Below, piece by piece: positions 17,655-60,908 of a DNA stretch of 64,000 nucleotides. The notes beneath the pieces were generated by a model. That model was not told the origin of the DNA. It was given only the letters and a program-made list of their open reading frames with translations, and did no database searches. The position numbers and the translations under genes were made by a program. The stretch is from a bacterium (GTDB taxonomy: Bacteria; Patescibacteriota; UBA1384; CAILIB01), in the NCBI GenBank assembly GCA_037131105.1, contig JBAXRQ010000001.1, positions 560,589-624,588 on the forward strand, written 5' to 3'. Numbering within the stretch: position 1 is the stretch's first letter; each line of letters opens with the position of its first letter.

Positions 17655-20270
17655 TCAGACCTGGGGAGCAAGCTGAGGGGCAGGAGCTGGGGCCGGTTCA
17701 GGAGTGGCGGCGGGTACCGGTGCGAGTGGCGTTGAAGCCGTTGGAGCCACAGGAGCGACGGGTGCTGAAAGCCCCTTTGAGCGTAGGCGGATCTCGGACT
17801 CCACCAGCTCGCGGTCACGGCCGTACTTGAGGCGGGACAGCTGCTTGATCGCCTCCCCTACCTGGACGTTCTCGTTAGGGTCCGGCGGATAAGCAGCGGC
17901 ATTGAACGGCTTGGACGGACTTCCGTCGATAAGCATCTTGATGTAGTAGTTGTACTTTTCGGTATTGACCATGTCCTCTATCTCCAGTGGATCAAACTCC
18001 TTCTTAAAGAACTCAGCATCCGAGGCACCGATACGCCAGGTAAGCATAGTACCGACGTTACCGATGACGGCATTTCTCGTATCTTCATCAAGCTGTTCGA
18101 CAAACTGGTTGGTGATATTAAGCGACAGCTGGTACTTACGAGCTTCGGAGAGAATGGTGGCAAAAGTCTTGGACGTGAAGTTCTGGAACTCATCCACATA
18201 GAGATAAAATGGTACTCGTTCTGCCTCGGACTGGTTCTGACGTGAGAATGCGGCGATCTGGATCTTACCTGAGATGATCATACCGAGCAGCTGGGCGTTG
18301 ATATCTCCAAGCAGACCCTTCGGCAAGGTCACCAGGAGGATCTTCTTGCTGTCCATGGCCTCCCGAAAGTTGAAGGCGCTGTTCTGCTGGCCGATGATCG
18401 GCCGCATGATGTCATTGGTGGTGAACTGGGTGAGCTTGGAGGTGATGTACGGCACGATATTAGCAAGAGCCGCCTCTCCCCCAGCCTTTTCAGCCTCGTT
18501 CACCCAGAAGTCGATGACCACCTGGTTGCGGGTCTTGGAGAGTTTCAGCTTGCGGAACTCGGCGTCGGCCAGTACCTTTGGGATCTCCATAAGGGTGCTT
18601 CCCGAGTCAGGGTCGTCCATAACCAGCATCATGGCATTTCGCATGTACTGCTCAAACATAGGTCCTCCGGTGGCCTTCAGGTCATACAGCTTGTCGAAGA
18701 TGGAGATCATCTCGTTGATGACCATGGTCTTCTGCTCTGGATAGCGGGGGTCGAACTCAAGTAGGTTGAAGGCCATGGGGCGGGCGGTATCGGAAGGGTC
18801 AAACAGGATGACGTCCTCGGCCCGCTCCTTGGGAATGTGCTTGAGTATCCACTCGACGGCGTCACCGTTAGGATCCATGTAGCAGACCCCGTGCCCAGCC
18901 CGGATGTCCTGCAGTATCATGTTCTGGAACATAACCGTCTTACCTACACCAGTCTTTCCTATCATGTAGAAGTGGCGAGACCGGTCAGGATAGTTCATAT
19001 AGACCGGGATCTCAGTGCCACGGAAGGCGCTGTAGCCCAGCAATAGACCCGACTTCGGGATGTTGTTAGGAGGTGAAAGCCGGCGGGCACCCAGCCAGTG
19101 GATGTTTGGCGTGTCCAGTACCCGGTTTGGGAAATGGAAGATACTGGCCAGCTCCTCTGTGTTCAAGATAAAGCTAGGCTGGTCCTTGGAGAATAGACGC
19201 AGGATGTAGTCATTACGCAGATGCTGGCTACCGACTGCCGCGGTCTTAAACCCGTTCGACTCAGGCGCCTGATACTGAGAGAAAGCTGAGAGCATGGTCT
19301 GGACGTGGTTCTTAGCCTCAATCTCGGTAGCCGCCCAGGCCACGCAGCGGATCTGTACTTTGAAGCCTACCTTGCTGCCCTTCTCCACCATCAGCTTGGC
19401 TTGCTGCTCCTGCATGGCGGTAAGCCTGACATTAGCCTGGGTGGTGTTACCCGCCTCGTTATGAGTAGGTGCATCAGTCTTCTGGCTGGCCACTGCGGAC
19501 TGACCAACTTCCTTGGCAATATTTCCTACCTTCTGCATATTCGTGGTATGGAAGGATTTGCCCTGCTGCACGTTATGGAGCGCCTCCTCTATCTTATGCT
19601 GCCAGGACTGGTCGGTGGGCTGCACCAGGATCTGAATAGCGCCTCTCCCCTGCCCCATCTTGGATAGTGAGTTGGTCAAGCCATTCAGCGGATCATTCTC
19701 CAGGTTCTTATACGTTCTAATAGGAAATATTTGTTGCTTCATCAGCTGGATACCACCAGAGGCTGTAGCACCACCCTCCTTGATAAAGACGTCGTAATCC
19801 GTAGCCTCCTCGATCTGGGCAGCCGGGTATTGGCCATGGATCTGCCGCTCCACCTGATCCACCGTGTCAGAGGGACAGATAACATAAAAGAAAATCTCAC
19901 CATCATGGGCGGCTAGCTCAAAGGAAAAAGTCGGCTGGCCCTTCAGAAACGTATCAAACCAACTCGAGTCATAGAAATGATGCAGCGATGTGAATACCGC
20001 TTCCATGACGCCCATAATCTCCTTGGGATCACGCCGGTCGTCAGGATTGGCGAGCTGTTTAGGCATTGTCACCCGCAGAGCCCGTGTCTTCAAGGCGCGG
20101 TCTTGGTGCTGCTTGGTACGACGCATATAAATGTAGCGTGCCGCCACAGCCAAGCCGATAAGTAGAACAGCCAGTAGAAAGTCAGTCACTAAAAGTGCCG
20201 CCGTGTTGGTAGTACTGCTACCGCCGTCGGTGTAACTGGTGTCGTAGGTGTAGTCGGTGGTGTCTGCCAT
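17655..20270 (-). CDS. FtsK/HerA/VirD4-superfamily ATPase B (871 aa): N-terminal transmembrane helix, same novel domain, Walker A GKTGVGKT, DPNGD, Walker B YVDEFQNF, Pro/Ala-rich tail
   Basis: Clear paralog of ATPase A (shared blocks EELAS.FHFP, FATILSEARKY, AVIGNVGTM). Confidence 0.7.
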   Translation of the reverse strand: MADTTDYTYDTSYTDGGSSTTNTAALLVTDFLLAVLLIGLAVAARYIYMRRTKQHQDRALKTRALRVTMPKQLANPDDRRDPKEIMGVMEAVFTSLHHFYDSSWFDTFLKGQPTFSFELAAHDGEIFFYVICPSDTVDQVERQIHGQYPAAQIEEATDYDVFIKEGGATASGGIQLMKQQIFPIRTYKNLENDPLNGLTNSLSKMGQGRGAIQILVQPTDQSWQHKIEEALHNVQQGKSFHTTNMQKVGNIAKEVGQSAVASQKTDAPTHNEAGNTTQANVRLTAMQEQQAKLMVEKGSKVGFKVQIRCVAWAATEIEAKNHVQTMLSAFSQYQAPESNGFKTAAVGSQHLRNDYILRLFSKDQPSFILNTEELASIFHFPNRVLDTPNIHWLGARRLSPPNNIPKSGLLLGYSAFRGTEIPVYMNYPDRSRHFYMIGKTGVGKTVMFQNMILQDIRAGHGVCYMDPNGDAVEWILKHIPKERAEDVILFDPSDTARPMAFNLLEFDPRYPEQKTMVINEMISIFDKLYDLKATGGPMFEQYMRNAMMLVMDDPDSGSTLMEIPKVLADAEFRKLKLSKTRNQVVIDFWVNEAEKAGGEAALANIVPYITSKLTQFTTNDIMRPIIGQQNSAFNFREAMDSKKILLVTLPKGLLGDINAQLLGMIISGKIQIAAFSRQNQSEAERVPFYLYVDEFQNFTSKTFATILSEARKYQLSLNITNQFVEQLDEDTRNAVIGNVGTMLTWRIGASDAEFFKKEFDPLEIEDMVNTEKYNYYIKMLIDGSPSKPFNAAAYPPDPNENVQVGEAIKQLSRLKYGRDRELVESEIRLRSKGLSAPVAPVAPTASTPLAPVPAATPEPAPAPAPQLAPQV

Positions 20271-29564: not shown

Positions 29565-30494
29565 TTACTTAACCGCGATCTCCACCTTCACACCGGGACC
29601 CATGGTAGGGGCAAGGCTGATGGACTCGATTTTGTTTGAGGCAAGAAGCTGTTCCAAGATACGGAAGTTCTCTACCAGCTGTTCGCTCTTGAAGGAAACA
29701 CGGCCGATAGCCAGGTGCACTACGCCGCTCTTGTCAGCCCGGTATTCGATACGGCCGCCACCGATCTCAGTGCGTGCTTTCTCGATATCCTCGGTGACGG
29801 TACCAGCCTTAGGAGACGGCATCAGACCCTTAGGACCCAGCACCTTGGCGTACTTGGCAAGCTTTGGCATCTGGGCAGGAGTAGCCAGCAGGATGTCGAA
29901 GTCAAGCTTACCAGCGGCGATAGCCTCTAAGGTCTCGTCGTCAGCAACGGCTACTTTCTTAGTTTTACCAGTGCCGTGGGGCAGGGTAACCATGCCGCGC
30001 AGACCTTCAGTCTTCACCTTGGCGTGCAGCTCAACAGTGGCGTCAAAGCTGACGTAGGACAGCTGCTTGACCAGCTCAACGGCTTCCTCGATAGGGTAGG
30101 CCTTACTGCGGTCTACCAGAGCGATCTTGGCCCGGTACTTCTTGCCACGCAGACGGAGGGGGTCCAATACTTTGGTAGGGGCCGGTGCAGGAGCGGCTCC
30201 CTTGGCCTCACGGGCGGCGGCAGCCTTCTTGGACTTCTCAGAGGTGCTCTCACGGCCCTTCTTGGCCTCTACGGCCTCCTCGTCAACGATCGCAGCCTCC
30301 TTCTCAAGCTGTGAATAGTCGATCTCGGTCGCCGCATCTGCCTCACGAGCAGTGTCATTGTCGGTGTTCATGGCGGACTCCTCAGCGGGGGTGACTTCGG
30401 CGCTGCCGGTCACCTGCTCGAGCTCTTCCAGTACCATGTCGTTCTCGTCCTGGTTCTGATCCATAGGATCATGCTTGATGGCGTCATCAGCCAT
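29565..30494 (-). CDS. rplA: 50S ribosomal protein L1 with a ~85-aa acidic low-complexity N-terminal extension
   Basis: Residues ~95-309 are a canonical L1 core; N-terminal D/E/A-rich region with no alternative start nearer the core. Confidence 0.85.
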   Translation of the reverse strand: MADDAIKHDPMDQNQDENDMVLEELEQVTGSAEVTPAEESAMNTDNDTAREADAATEIDYSQLEKEAAIVDEEAVEAKKGRESTSEKSKKAAAAREAKGAAPAPAPTKVLDPLRLRGKKYRAKIALVDRSKAYPIEEAVELVKQLSYVSFDATVELHAKVKTEGLRGMVTLPHGTGKTKKVAVADDETLEAIAAGKLDFDILLATPAQMPKLAKYAKVLGPKGLMPSPKAGTVTEDIEKARTEIGGGRIEYRADKSGVVHLAIGRVSFKSEQLVENFRILEQLLASNKIESISLAPTMGPGVKVEIAVK

Positions 30495-43784: not shown

Positions 43785-45713
43785 TTACTCTTCAGAAGAA
43801 TGAAATAGCGGAATATGCAGCCTGCGAGCCTGTCTTCCGATCTCTTCCTGTAACAACTGGCTATACAGCAGCAGCCCTATCGACTCCATGTTGCCGTGCT
43901 GCTCATGACCCAGGATATTGCCACCACCGCGTATCTCAAGGTCCCGCAAGGCAATAGACCAGCCGCTACCCAAGGTATCTGCCTCCATAAGTGCCTCAAG
44001 CCTTCTACGGGCGTTCTCTGTAGTCGTAAGCACCTCAGGTTGCAGCTCATAGCCGGCCCTCTCTACCCCGCCCACCATAAAGTAAGCAAAAGCCTGGGTA
44101 CGGCGGCGGCCTACCCGTCCGCGCAGCTGATACAGGTCGGAAAGGCCGAACCACTCGCTATGGAGTACAACGAGCGTATTGGCACTCGGACTATCTAGTC
44201 CGTATTCAACGATGCTTGAAGCCACCAGCACATCGATTTCACCCGCCAAAAACAGGCTCATCGCCTCAGCCAGGGCGTTTTCCCCCATCTGGCCGTGGGC
44301 CATGCAGATCACTACCTCCCCTTTTGACTTAGTACTGGCCCGGGCGCCGTCGGCAAAGTACGTAGACTTCAATCCCCCGGCAGTAAGGATAGTAGATACA
44401 CGCTCTAACACGAGCGGCAATGACTGTACCCGATTGTGAACCACATAGGTCTGGCCGCCACGTTTGATTTCCGCCAGCATGGCCTTTCCCAACACTTTGT
44501 CCTGGTAGGGACCCACCTCAGTCGTGACCGGGAGGCGGCCCTGGGGAGGCGTACGAAGTATGCTGAGGCTTCTTAGACCCGAAAGACTCATCGAAAGCGT
44601 ACGGGGAATTGGCGTGGCTGACAGCGAAAGCACGTCGATACTTGGGCGAAGCTCCTTAAGACGCTCCTTTTGTCCGACGCCGAACTTCTGCTCCTCATCC
44701 AGGATAAGCAGACCAAGGTCCTTGAACTGGACGTCCTTCCCCAGCAGTCTATGAGTGCCGATGACTAAATCCACACTACCATCAGCAAGCCCAGGCAATA
44801 CCGCCTGGTTTTTAGTCCCCGTGAGTCGTGAGATATGCCCCACCTTCACTGGCAGATCTGCGAATCGCTTTTCCAGAACCACGTAATGCTGCTCAGCCAG
44901 GACCGTAGTAGGTGCGACAAGGGCCACCTGCTTGCCCGAGGCTATGACCTGGGCGGCCGCTCTCAGAGCCAGCTCGGTCTTACCAAAACCGACATCGCCG
45001 CAGATAAGCCTGTCCATAGGAAGCCTTCTGGCAAAATCCTTTTGCATTTCATCCCACGCCCGGGCCTGGTCTTCGGTCAGGTCAAAATCCACTTGGCTTT
45101 CTAGCACGTTCTGCCACTCTTCTGCATGGGGAAACGGTTCACGCTCAGTCAGCTGACGCTGGGCATAGATCTGTAAGAGCTGGCGGGCTATGGCAATCAG
45201 ATCCTTCTGGATACGCTCCTTCGTACGTAGCCAAGCCTTAGAGTACAGCCTGGTCAGTCGTGGGTGCCGACTACCAATATATGGCATCAGTTCCTTATAG
45301 CGATCGTAGGGAAACAGCAGCCGGTCGTTACCAGCGTACTGTAGGGAAACAAAGCGTTTTTCTCCCTCCGCAGACATACGTGTCTCTATCCGTTCAAAAA
45401 TACCTACTCCGTGGAACGGATGAACTACATATTCGCCGGGCCTAATCGTGCCATGCTCGGTCTCAATCTCATTAGCAACAACTTCGGGGGTAAGCTCAGT
45501 AAGATTCCAGTCACCCTCCTCACCTCGCTCCATCTTTTCTAGATCGGCGTCAAAGAAATGAAACCGATATGCCTTCGAAGCAGACACCGGCCACCAGCTG
45601 ACCGTATCTCCGCGCACTACGAAATCACCGGATTGGTGTATCCGGTCTACCTCCTGATATGAGTGCTTCCTTAGAAAAAGCAGTAACTCCGTGTACGATA
45701 GCATCCGGGCCAT
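43785..45713 (-). CDS. mfd: Short Mfd-like transcription-repair coupling factor (CarD/RNAP-interacting domain plus RecG-like helicase; lacks the N-terminal UvrB-homology D1-D2 domains)
   Basis: GEYVVHPFHGVGIF (CarD_TRCF RID), helicase motifs GDVGFGKTE, DEEQKFG, SATPIPRT; 642 aa versus ~1150 for canonical Mfd. Confidence 0.75.
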   Translation of the reverse strand: MARMLSYTELLLFLRKHSYQEVDRIHQSGDFVVRGDTVSWWPVSASKAYRFHFFDADLEKMERGEEGDWNLTELTPEVVANEIETEHGTIRPGEYVVHPFHGVGIFERIETRMSAEGEKRFVSLQYAGNDRLLFPYDRYKELMPYIGSRHPRLTRLYSKAWLRTKERIQKDLIAIARQLLQIYAQRQLTEREPFPHAEEWQNVLESQVDFDLTEDQARAWDEMQKDFARRLPMDRLICGDVGFGKTELALRAAAQVIASGKQVALVAPTTVLAEQHYVVLEKRFADLPVKVGHISRLTGTKNQAVLPGLADGSVDLVIGTHRLLGKDVQFKDLGLLILDEEQKFGVGQKERLKELRPSIDVLSLSATPIPRTLSMSLSGLRSLSILRTPPQGRLPVTTEVGPYQDKVLGKAMLAEIKRGGQTYVVHNRVQSLPLVLERVSTILTAGGLKSTYFADGARASTKSKGEVVICMAHGQMGENALAEAMSLFLAGEIDVLVASSIVEYGLDSPSANTLVVLHSEWFGLSDLYQLRGRVGRRRTQAFAYFMVGGVERAGYELQPEVLTTTENARRRLEALMEADTLGSGWSIALRDLEIRGGGNILGHEQHGNMESIGLLLYSQLLQEEIGRQARRLHIPLFHSSEE

Positions 45714-45806
45714 AGTAGCATTAGATGGTCTTTCCTGAAAGTAGTAAGGGATATTTCCAATTGTATGAATACAGATTAATACTTCATATATATGATTAAA
45801 TATGAG

Positions 45807-45835
45807 TTGACAAGAAAAGTTGGCTATGGTAGTAT
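45807..45835 (+). promoter_or_regulatory. Sigma70 promoter TTGACA-17-TAGTAT on the plus strand, in an otherwise minus-strand region
   Basis: Consensus -35, good -10, AT-rich upstream region. Confidence 0.55.
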
Positions 45836-45841
45836 CAGATC

Positions 45842-45985
45842 ATATTTGAGCGACCAGGTTGTCTATCTATCTACGCAGCCAACGATCTTTGCCCCTCCTT
45901 TGGATCGGGCCCGCAAGGGCCGGCACGTAGATAGATACATCACCTGGTCCAAGCACAAAAACACCGCCTTCAAGCGGTGTTTTTA
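45842..45985 (+). ncRNA. Candidate ~145-nt small RNA: outer 8+13-bp stem enclosing a hairpin with a 15-nt C-rich loop (UUUGCCCCUCCUUUG) and a GCAA-tetraloop hairpin, ending in an intrinsic terminator
   Basis: Transcript bounded by the promoter at 45807-45835 and the terminator at 45957-45985; 64-codon ORF has no SD and unusual composition. Confidence 0.4.
45957..45985. terminator. Bidirectional intrinsic terminator (aaaaa-acaccgcc-ttcaa-ggcggtgt-ttttt) serving the small RNA candidate (plus) and the rplK transcript (minus)
   Basis: 8-bp GC stem flanked by A5 and T5. Confidence 0.7.
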
Positions 45986-46136
45986 GTTGCAAGCGGTAAA
46001 CGTGTCCGGTACAGATCCCGTAAACGTTTTCAGGGAGATGAATTTTGAGGAAGAAGTGAGTATTCGACCGAGGCGTACTGACGTACGTCGAGGAAGAAAC
46101 GGAGCTTCTGACAAAGAAATTCGCTCGCTGAAACGT

Positions 46137-46568
46137 TTACTTTTCGACGTCGACGCCCATGGATCGAGCAGTTCCCGCAATTATCTTAGCCGCCTCCTCA
46201 GGAGTACGTGCGCTAAGGTCCGACATCTTGATCTCAACGATCTTGGCCATCTGGTCCTTGGTAAGGGTACCGATCTTGGTCTTCTTTGGATTGGCGGAAC
46301 CTACCTTGATACCGAGTGCCTGCTTAATTAGTACGGCTGCAGGTGGCTGCTTCAGGATGAAACTGAAGGTACGGTCCTCGTAGATGGTAATTTCGCAAGG
46401 AATGATGGTATCGCCCTTGTCCTTGGTAGCCTCATTGAACTGCTTACAGAAGTCCATGATGTTAATACCTTGAGGACCGAGAACAGTACCTACTGGAGGT
46501 GCAGGCTGTGCCTTACCGGCTGGACACTGCAGCTTGATGATAGTCTTGATTGGCTTTTGAGTGGCCAT
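46137..46568 (-). CDS. rplK: 50S ribosomal protein L11
   Basis: Canonical L11 sequence (KLQCPAGKAQPAPPVGTVLGPQGINIMDFCKQFN...). Confidence 0.92.
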   Translation of the reverse strand: MATQKPIKTIIKLQCPAGKAQPAPPVGTVLGPQGINIMDFCKQFNEATKDKGDTIIPCEITIYEDRTFSFILKQPPAAVLIKQALGIKVGSANPKKTKIGTLTKDQMAKIVEIKMSDLSARTPEEAAKIIAGTARSMGVDVEK

Positions 46569-60317: not shown

Positions 60318-60908
60318 TTAGCAGGCAGGAGTAGCGCTAACAGGAGGAGTTCCCGATACTGTGGTAAACCCAGTGGAGCCATCAGCTGACTCAAAGATAG
60401 AGGCATTGACAGGGATAGAAGTGTCTCCAGAAGAAACAAGGCCAGAGGCCCAGAAGTGATAGCCAGGCTTAGAAGTAGAAGCCACTACTGTACCGTCACT
60501 TCCTAGCCCAGCATGGTCCGTTGAACAGTAGTTGTAAGTAATACCAGAACCAGAAGTTTTGGTAATCCTAGCACCGTACGTACCCTGACCAGTGGCGCTT
60601 AGAATGCCAGTAAAGACTGCTGCAAACCTTGCCGAAGCAGTAGTATTAGTCAAAGTATATGGAGCTTTCAAGGCAGCTAGACCAGCAACAGTCAGGTCAG
60701 TCTGAACAATGCCGCCAGAATTGTTGGCATCGTCGTTCTTGAAGTTCTCGATAGAGTTTCCAGCCGCTTGAACATCGCTCTTAGCACCCGCATTGATAGC
60801 CTTTACCCGAGCATTCTGCAGCTGGGTCAGTACCAAGGTTGCCAAGATGGCGATGATGGCAATAACCACCAACAGTTCGATAAGTGTGAATCCTTTCAAT
60901 CTACGCAT
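60318..60908 (-). CDS. pilA: Type IV major pilin (PilA-like)
   Basis: MRRLKGFTLIELLVVIAIIAILA class III signal peptide; 196 aa; strong promoter and SD. Confidence 0.8.
   Translation of the reverse strand: MRRLKGFTLIELLVVIAIIAILATLVLTQLQNARVKAINAGAKSDVQAAGNSIENFKNDDANNSGGIVQTDLTVAGLAALKAPYTLTNTTASARFAAVFTGILSATGQGTYGARITKTSGSGITYNYCSTDHAGLGSDGTVVASTSKPGYHFWASGLVSSGDTSIPVNASIFESADGSTGFTTVSGTPPVSATPAC

Follow-up and report, generated by a model that had tools for sequence, protein, structure and literature searches.

Small RNAs (sRNAs) that carry anti-Shine-Dalgarno (anti-SD) motifs in hairpin loops are an established kind, an example being NfeR1, which shows a C/U-rich anti-SD-like motif (CCUCCUCCC) in its hairpin loops. 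RsaE/RoxS of Firmicutes and 6C/B11 of Actinobacteria likewise present C-rich loops on stable hairpins, are deeply conserved within their phyla and pair with G-rich translation-initiation regions. The anti-SD sequence of the bacterial 16S rRNA tail is CCUCCUUU, and the 3' tail itself reads ...GGAUCACCUCCUUU-3'. The NfeR1/alpha-r14 family of rhizobial sRNAs is the subject of PMC10746234. CPR/Patescibacteria account for a large part of bacterial diversity, and their tiny genomes contain little non-coding DNA; no description of regulatory small RNAs in this group was found in the papers searched. The RNA analysed here appears, by analogy, to be closest in design to the trans-encoded sRNAs that expose C/U-rich anti-SD-like loop motifs (NfeR1/alpha-r14, RsaE/RoxS, 6C), and it is this group that it most resembles. 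With NfeR1/alpha-r14 it would share the trans-encoded design, a promoter and terminator of its own and the anti-SD-like loop motif; however, it has one such loop where NfeR1 has three, it comes from an unrelated phylum, no sequence or Rfam match connects the two, and its host genome shows no SD usage, so that its target class cannot be ribosome-binding sites in general. With RsaE/RoxS and 6C/B11 it has in common a C-rich single-stranded loop on a stable hairpin and deep conservation, but in place of their repeated UCCC or C6 motifs it carries just one such loop, 13 nt long with a CCUCC core, on a scaffold that is either a three-way junction or a long hairpin, and the start regions of its genome are poor in the complement.

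The RNA lies in a 64-kb stretch of DNA (the window) with a G+C content of about 55%, whose proteins identify it as part of an uncultured Patescibacteria (CPR) genome; the nearest named homologues of its IleRS are from Kerfeldbacteria and Uhrbacteria, at 46-47% identity. The minus strand carries every large ORF from 14145 to 57851, in keeping with what the first-pass annotation had said of the surroundings, and within the all-minus-strand gene block rplU-secE-nusG-rplK / mfd-dprA-topA-recR a 423-nt spacer separates rplK (46137-46568, minus strand) from an mfd-like helicase gene (43785-45713, minus strand). Three items occupy the plus strand of this spacer: a promoter-like site, a strongly structured segment and a hairpin ending in a U-run. 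The first is a predicted sigma-70-type promoter (45807-45835, plus strand; 10/12 matches plus TG), composed of a -35 box, TTGACA (45807-45812), and a -10 box, TAGTAT (45830-45835), set apart by a 17-nt spacer that includes the extended -10 TG at -15/-14 (45827-45828). A scan of the 6-kb region returned 4 promoter-like sites against 4.7 expected, so that the match in the window alone is insignificant; what lifts the case above chance is the conservation of the promoter, the core and the covarying pairs, and not matches at a single site. A -35 box of the form TTGAC(A/T), a 17-18 nt spacer and a TAnnnT-type -10 box recur in 19/19 distinct chromosomal copies, always with the -35 box 61-90 nt upstream of the loop, and the TG at -15/-14 is present in 12/19 of them.

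The hairpin at the other end is a predicted intrinsic terminator (45957-45988, plus strand; AAAAACACCGC / GCGGUGUUUUU, with a 6-nt loop), which appears both as inverted repeat I4 and in the fold and has perfect 11-bp arms (45957-45967 / 45974-45984; 11 nt, 100% complementary) ending in U5. Its T-run is part of the stem, which is why a consensus terminator scan overlooked it; being symmetrical, the hairpin can also stop the convergent rplK operon. In the relatives the sequence of the terminator differs, with a hairpin and T-run kept: the 19 chromosomal copies end either in a separate terminator, unrelated in sequence, or in a U-run right after the outer stem (P1), which would then serve as terminator, and in 6 relatives the T-run follows P1 directly. 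From these signals we infer a transcription start near 45842 and a transcript of ~145 nt in the window, with a version of ~105-115 nt in those relatives where P1 would act as terminator. The near-consensus plus-strand promoter and the intrinsic terminator proposed in the first-pass annotation are both present, and both are conserved in the 19 homologues.

On the plus strand, the segment 45840-45988 folds with an energy of -69.4 kcal/mol (z = -9.4 versus 200 shuffles); since the reverse strand of the same segment folds about equally well (z = -9.2), fold energy alone cannot identify the strand. The predicted fold comprises a 22-bp interrupted outer stem, a hairpin with a C-rich loop and a GCAA-capped hairpin, which bears out, to within one base pair, the earlier picture of a 21-bp outer stem enclosing two hairpins, one of them capped by GCAA. 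All parts lie on the plus strand. The 5' strand of P1 (45852-45875; inverted repeat I1, 24 nt, 88% complementary) is variable distally and conserved proximally (CUAUCUACG), and its 3' strand, CGUAGAUAGAUACAUCACCUGGUC, occupies 45926-45949. Inside P1, the short helix P1b joins GCC (45878-45880) to GGC (45922-45924), with 100% of cells paired in the alignment and one compensatory UA, and the junction AA (45881-45882) leads from its 5' strand into the P2 hairpin (45883-45907), whose stem is CGAUCU/GGAUCG (45883-45888 / 45902-45907). The C-rich loop on P2, UUUGCCCCUCCUUUG, has 15 nt, as given before, when its closing U.G pair is counted as loop, and 13 nt when that pair is counted as paired; this 13-nt core, UUGCCCCUCCUUU (45889-45901), is the presumed functional site. 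The P3 hairpin (45908-45921), GGCCC-GCAA-GGGCC, is a variable accessory stem.

Eighteen further distinct metagenomic relatives, with Mfd identities as low as 42%, carry the same RNA at the same position, which gives 19 chromosomal copies in all; an exact-pattern scan of metagenome contigs contributed nine further distinct copies, its other matches being chance occurrences in coding DNA. Conservation in relatives had been named in the first-pass annotation as a check on the RNA, and these 19 distinct chromosomal copies, with the RNA kept at the syntenic position, answer it in the affirmative. At the loci of Mfd relatives spanning 70% to 42% identity (L083-L086, L115-L121) the order rplU-(secE)-nusG-rplK-spacer-mfd is kept in all, and in each the spacer holds the element, opposite in strand to the genes. 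The core is almost invariant where the Mfd proteins share just 63-70% identity, and the Mfd and IleRS proteins of relatives carrying the RNA have diverged to 42-50% identity. The most distant relatives, L120 and L121, are without P3 and form a single long hairpin that bears the same loop. At a Paceibacterota locus with 43% Mfd identity (L242), neither the synteny nor the motif was found.

Within this set the helices change in the manner of a paired RNA. P1 has changed on both sides at 14/22 pairs, P3 has compensatory changes at 4/5 pairs, with GCAA, UUCG, GUAA or CUCG as its loop and some stems longer, and P2 shows a G-C to A-U change in 3 sequences and, in L120, replacement of the whole stem by AGGCU/AGCCU. 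RNAalifold, applied to 18 sequences, predicted 34 pairs, 21 of which have compensatory changes. A hand-written structure (P1 with 22 pairs, P1b GCC/GGC, P2 CGAUCU/GGAUCG and P3 with 5 pairs), evaluated over an alignment of 17 sequences, has 91.6% of cells paired and 20/36 pairs that change on both sides; 0/500 shuffles reached the observed pairing values, and when the partners were slid by 1-3 columns as a control, pairing fell to 23-42%. The proximal part of P1, UCUAC/GUAGA, is conserved more than pairing demands. The strand, on which fold energy is silent, is indicated by the invariant U.G that closes P2 and further G.U pairs in P1, together with the promoter and the U-runs, all of which place the RNA on the plus strand; U.G pairs such as 39-53, present in 17/17 sequences, would become A.C on the opposite strand. 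With R1, the covariance model derived from this alignment, the window reaches 110.2 bits on the plus strand versus 33.5 bits on the minus strand; the scores of the relatives are 77-105 bits, with 38.6 bits for L120, and a search with R1 of 553 kb of rplK loci from other phyla, which served as negative control (loci of L11 genes 53-62% identical, among the matches listed), returned zero matches. By this comparative evidence the element is a strand-specific structured RNA supported by covariation. The proposal, first made from the window alone, of an orphan small RNA on the plus strand with a promoter and a terminator to itself has thereby gained the support of conservation, covariation and a score of 110 versus 33 bits; what the comparison confirms is a structured small RNA gene, predicted to be independently transcribed and deeply conserved in a CPR lineage.

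Does this RNA belong to a class already described? At gathering score, Rfam 15 returned no family in the whole 64-kb window, where no tRNA genes were found either, or in 132 kb from the relatives; within 45650-46200, searched at E <= 10, the best matches were to unrelated families with E >= 0.7. The covariance search against Rfam, another check named at the outset, thus turned up no SRP_bact, 6S or RsaE match and no confident match to an unrelated family. Three candidate classes were considered and rejected individually. Bacteria_small_SRP (RF00169) gave no model match, either at gathering score in the window and relatives or at E <= 10 in 45650-46200; 6S RNA (RF00013) gave no model match, and the RNA has nothing like the large central bubble by which 6S mimics an open promoter, the bulges of P1 being just 1-2 nt; and membership in RsaE/RoxS (RF01820), whose loops and linkers bear several UCCC motifs, was dismissed, with no match at E <= 10 and one C-rich loop only. 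Searches for sRNAs of CPR/Saccharibacteria and for the loop sequence likewise found no description of the RNA in the papers searched. As judged from these comparisons, it is a new RNA family, without a match in Rfam 15 or a description in the papers searched; covariance model R1 can be used to annotate it in public genomes.

The loop is the sole part of the RNA kept without any change: UUGCCCCUCCUUU is identical in 19/19 chromosomal copies and in a phage-like copy (for details, see below). Because it is invariant while the helices covary, are replaced or are lost, the loop is best taken as the functional site and the rest as scaffold. It contains CCUCCUUU, and, as in the bacterial 16S tail, a GGAUC adjoins, in this case as part of the stem; however, the two blocks are permuted with respect to the tail, and the sequence sits in a closed loop instead of at a free 3' end. 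What could such a loop pair with in a genome of this kind? A 4-nt SD core precedes 7/54 genes versus a background of 16% in random windows, which is equal to background, and the upstream regions in the window are G-poor, and the preceding gene typically ends in a TAA stop 10-14 nt ahead of the ATG. Predicted pairing with the loop is weaker at start regions (mean -6.55 kcal/mol) than in same-sense intragenic windows (-7.71 kcal/mol; Mann-Whitney p = 0.006), that is, start regions are depleted, not enriched, in loop-complementary sequence. No conserved loop pairing was found at the start regions of 11 syntenic genes, and when the window (<=3 mismatches allowed) and 195 kb of relatives (<=2) were searched for AAAGGAGGGGCAA, the complement of the loop, just the RNA's own gene and chance-level matches came up. 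The first-pass annotation had stressed the C-rich, anti-SD-like loop as the key feature, and in this it was right, the loop being the only part invariant in the 19 copies and the phage-like copy, whereas the RsaE/RoxS-style picture of a regulator that would mask GGAGG SD sequences throughout does not fit this genome (7/54 genes versus 16%, and weaker pairing at starts); target prediction at SD regions, which it had also named as a check, gave no support for start regions as a whole, with start regions weaker than coding sequence and the 11 syntenic genes devoid of conserved pairing. Two isolated candidate sites do exist in the window. The best predicted start-site pairing is at a VirD4/TrwB-like coupling-protein gene (17655-20270, minus strand; -17.2 kcal/mol), which has GAGGGGC at its start codon, and the second at a type IV pilin-like gene with an N_methyl motif (60318-60908, minus strand; -14.6 kcal/mol), where CAAAGGAGG, among the few strong SD sequences, lies just upstream of the ATG.

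The phage-like copy is carried by an IMG/VR contig (L087 11380-11480, minus strand; the same as metagenome contig L097), which contains the identical 23-nt hairpin, GAUC-UUUGCCCCUCCUUUG-GAUC, set within a different three-way junction whose two hairpins come in the reverse order (z = -6.7). The contig is temperate-phage-like, encoding an integrase, an Erf recombinase, an M23 peptidase, an LPD38 protein and an Mrr-like nuclease, and its leftward early operon includes the RNA, at a distance of 1.6 kb from the integrase. An Rfam search of the contig gave nothing credible. Its gene starts are of the SD-less 'TAA ... ATG' style, as in the window, and on account of this match a host of the same kind is plausible for the element. 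Viral contigs scanned with a 14-mer produced no further convincing hairpin among the matches listed (at least 120). Most of the exact TTTGCCCCTCCTTT matches among the viral contigs listed (L122-L241) are, as a side observation, the reverse complement of a strong SD plus start codon (AAAGGAGGGGCAAA-ATG) in unrelated phages, from which it follows that the perfect complement of the loop is a common ribosome-binding site in phages that do use SD sequences.

On the sequence evidence, we give a roughly even chance to the reading that this is a stable non-coding sRNA acting in trans, whose loop would pair with targets that are few and purine-rich. The three-way junction, together with the long stem P1, would form a rigid scaffold displaying the 13-nt single-stranded loop UUGCCCCUCCUUU, which would base-pair in trans with purine-rich AAAGGAGG(GG)-like stretches; pairing of this type seems the most likely because the loop contains CCUCCUUU, as the anti-SD tail does. 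At its targets the RNA might block ribosome access or trigger cleavage. Since the genome does not generally use SD sequences, these targets would be a small set of mRNAs and not start sites in general, the candidates in the window being the pilin-like and the VirD4/TrwB-like gene named above. However, invariance of all 13 bases, including UUGCC outside the anti-SD core, across so deep a divergence exceeds what a generic SD-binding seed would need, and a single very conserved partner, RNA or protein, fits this better.

The main rival, which we hold to be possible though rather unlikely, is that the RNA is a mimic or decoy of the 16S rRNA 3' tail, its loop (CCUCCUUU flanked by GAUC) titrating a protein or enzyme that binds or cuts the tail. 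The factor would be a tail-sequestering ribosomal protein as in Bacteroidetes, a maturation RNase or a MazF-type toxin that cleaves the anti-SD, and the role of the phage copy would be to hijack or neutralise that factor. Papers exist on anti-SD sequestration in Bacteroidetes ribosomes (PMC7797042) and on anti-SD removal by a MazF toxin (PMC12274833). The invariance, across deep divergence, of the 13 loop bases together with the top of the P2 stem, the retention of proximal UCUAC/GUAGA in P1 beyond the needs of pairing, the recurrence of the same 23-nt hairpin in a temperate-phage-like element and the lack of SD usage, which leaves no general class of mRNA targets, all speak for a mimic, which indeed fits the full invariance of the loop and the phage copy better than trans pairing does; yet the protein partner remains hypothetical, and the resemblance to the tail extends over just 8 contiguous bases. 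A position between rplK and mfd that is fixed in every relative whose context was visible might instead point to a cis-acting or antisense element of that junction, whose strong convergent transcription unit and long hairpin would insulate mfd from read-through out of the ribosomal-protein operon, or whose RNA would pair with read-through transcripts, without trans targets. The terminator of the window is bidirectional, and in several relatives the RNA consists essentially of a promoter followed by a giant terminator hairpin, as such a role would have it. An insulator, however, needs neither an invariant 13-nt loop nor a covarying three-way junction, rplK has a separate terminator of its own in relatives such as L115-L117, and the phage-like element carries the hairpin in a wholly different context; a function confined to the junction is therefore improbable.

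Still less can be said for a divergent housekeeping RNA (SRP/4.5S, 6S or a Y-like RNA) missed by the Rfam models, to which we attach a very small probability. The RNA is similar in size to 4.5S and 6S RNA and, like them, has a strong, constitutive-looking promoter and a long terminal helix formed from its 5' and 3' ends; the GNRA tetraloop of the window copy and the deep conservation are further points in its favour. Against this, Rfam 15 gave no match in the window or the 132 kb of relatives beyond local ones to unrelated families (best E >= 0.7), there are neither helix-8 internal loops nor a 6S-type central bubble, and the GNRA hairpin is perfectly paired, varies and is dispensable, being missing in L120 and L121. 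In SRP RNAs, helix 8 carries a conserved GNAR tetraloop, and Ffh binds its symmetric and asymmetric internal loops. P3 cannot be this helix, since it is paired throughout, differs among the copies in loop and length and is lost from those two relatives, and the divergent SRP/4.5S RNA entertained as an alternative in the first-pass annotation has accordingly been abandoned. The least probable reading by our estimate, one that we keep with scarcely any weight, is that the element is a small protein gene or a DNA repeat, either a MITE or a phage attachment site. A 64-codon ORF does exist (45792-45986), P1 is a 24-nt inverted repeat, and a phage-like contig with an integrase gene shares an identical 23-nt block. 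But the stop-free stretch in the frame of that ORF varies from 26 to 70 codons across the homologues (18-92 in any frame), none of the frames is kept, and the alignment shows indels of 2, 3 and 5 nt in P3, not all multiples of three; the element is for these reasons not a protein gene, and the doubt voiced earlier about the 64-codon ORF was well placed. A repeat, for its part, would have to be reconciled with substitutions that are compensatory for RNA pairing, with a strand-asymmetric signal, with a single copy in the 64-kb window, and with a phage copy that lies in an early operon, 1.6 kb from the integrase, as a complete folded three-way junction and not as a gene fragment.

A broader and more speculative proposal, which we consider unlikely although not to the degree of a role confined to the rplK-mfd junction, is that a lineage that does not use SD sequences keeps an abundant, dedicated and free-standing copy of the anti-SD to act on the translation apparatus or on foreign RNA, and that its own temperate phages copied it for the same purpose. 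The RNA could then serve as decoy for a factor binding or cutting the 16S tail, as a ribosome-associated RNA in charge of the few SD-led messages, or as a sponge silencing foreign mRNAs with SD sequences, from phages or from a host bacterium, and leaves the cell's own mRNAs unharmed. Whichever of these applies, the RNA is probably important for the cell, given its strong promoter, its fixed address and a 13-base loop that does not change across relatives whose Mfd and IleRS proteins retain 42-50% identity, and the pairing of an anti-SD-like loop with a genome lacking SD usage, along with the phage-like copy, offers a testable entry into translation or RNA surveillance in the CPR.

Some further features of the neighbourhood deserve mention. 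The stretch from the sRNA terminator to the rplK stop codon (45990-46136, ~145 nt) is mostly missing from the three closest aligned relatives (L083, L084, L085) and is flanked by inverted repeats, GTAAACGT(G/T)T ... AAACGTTTAC; because these repeats bound it, it may be a small insertion or a structure of the rplK 3'-UTR. In two relatives an unannotated ORF of 100-124 aa with no Pfam match is inserted between the sRNA and rplK on the strand of the sRNA (L115 3319-3621 and L117 3275-3649, both on the minus strand). A study of CPR ribosomes reports that in a subgroup of Parcubacteria the anti-SD motif of the 16S rRNA is often missing and uL1 is missing as well (PMC9297842). A link to these Parcubacteria, prompted by the fact that rplK is not followed by rplA, was considered and rejected: a uL1 gene is present at 29565-30494, so that an explanation through loss of uL1 and the anti-SD does not apply as such. 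This rplA gene (minus strand) lies ~16 kb away from rplK and adjoins pth and a class-1 release factor gene (PCRF and RF-1 domains), and the uL1 protein it encodes, of 309 aa, has an N-terminal extension of ~110 residues beyond typical uL1.
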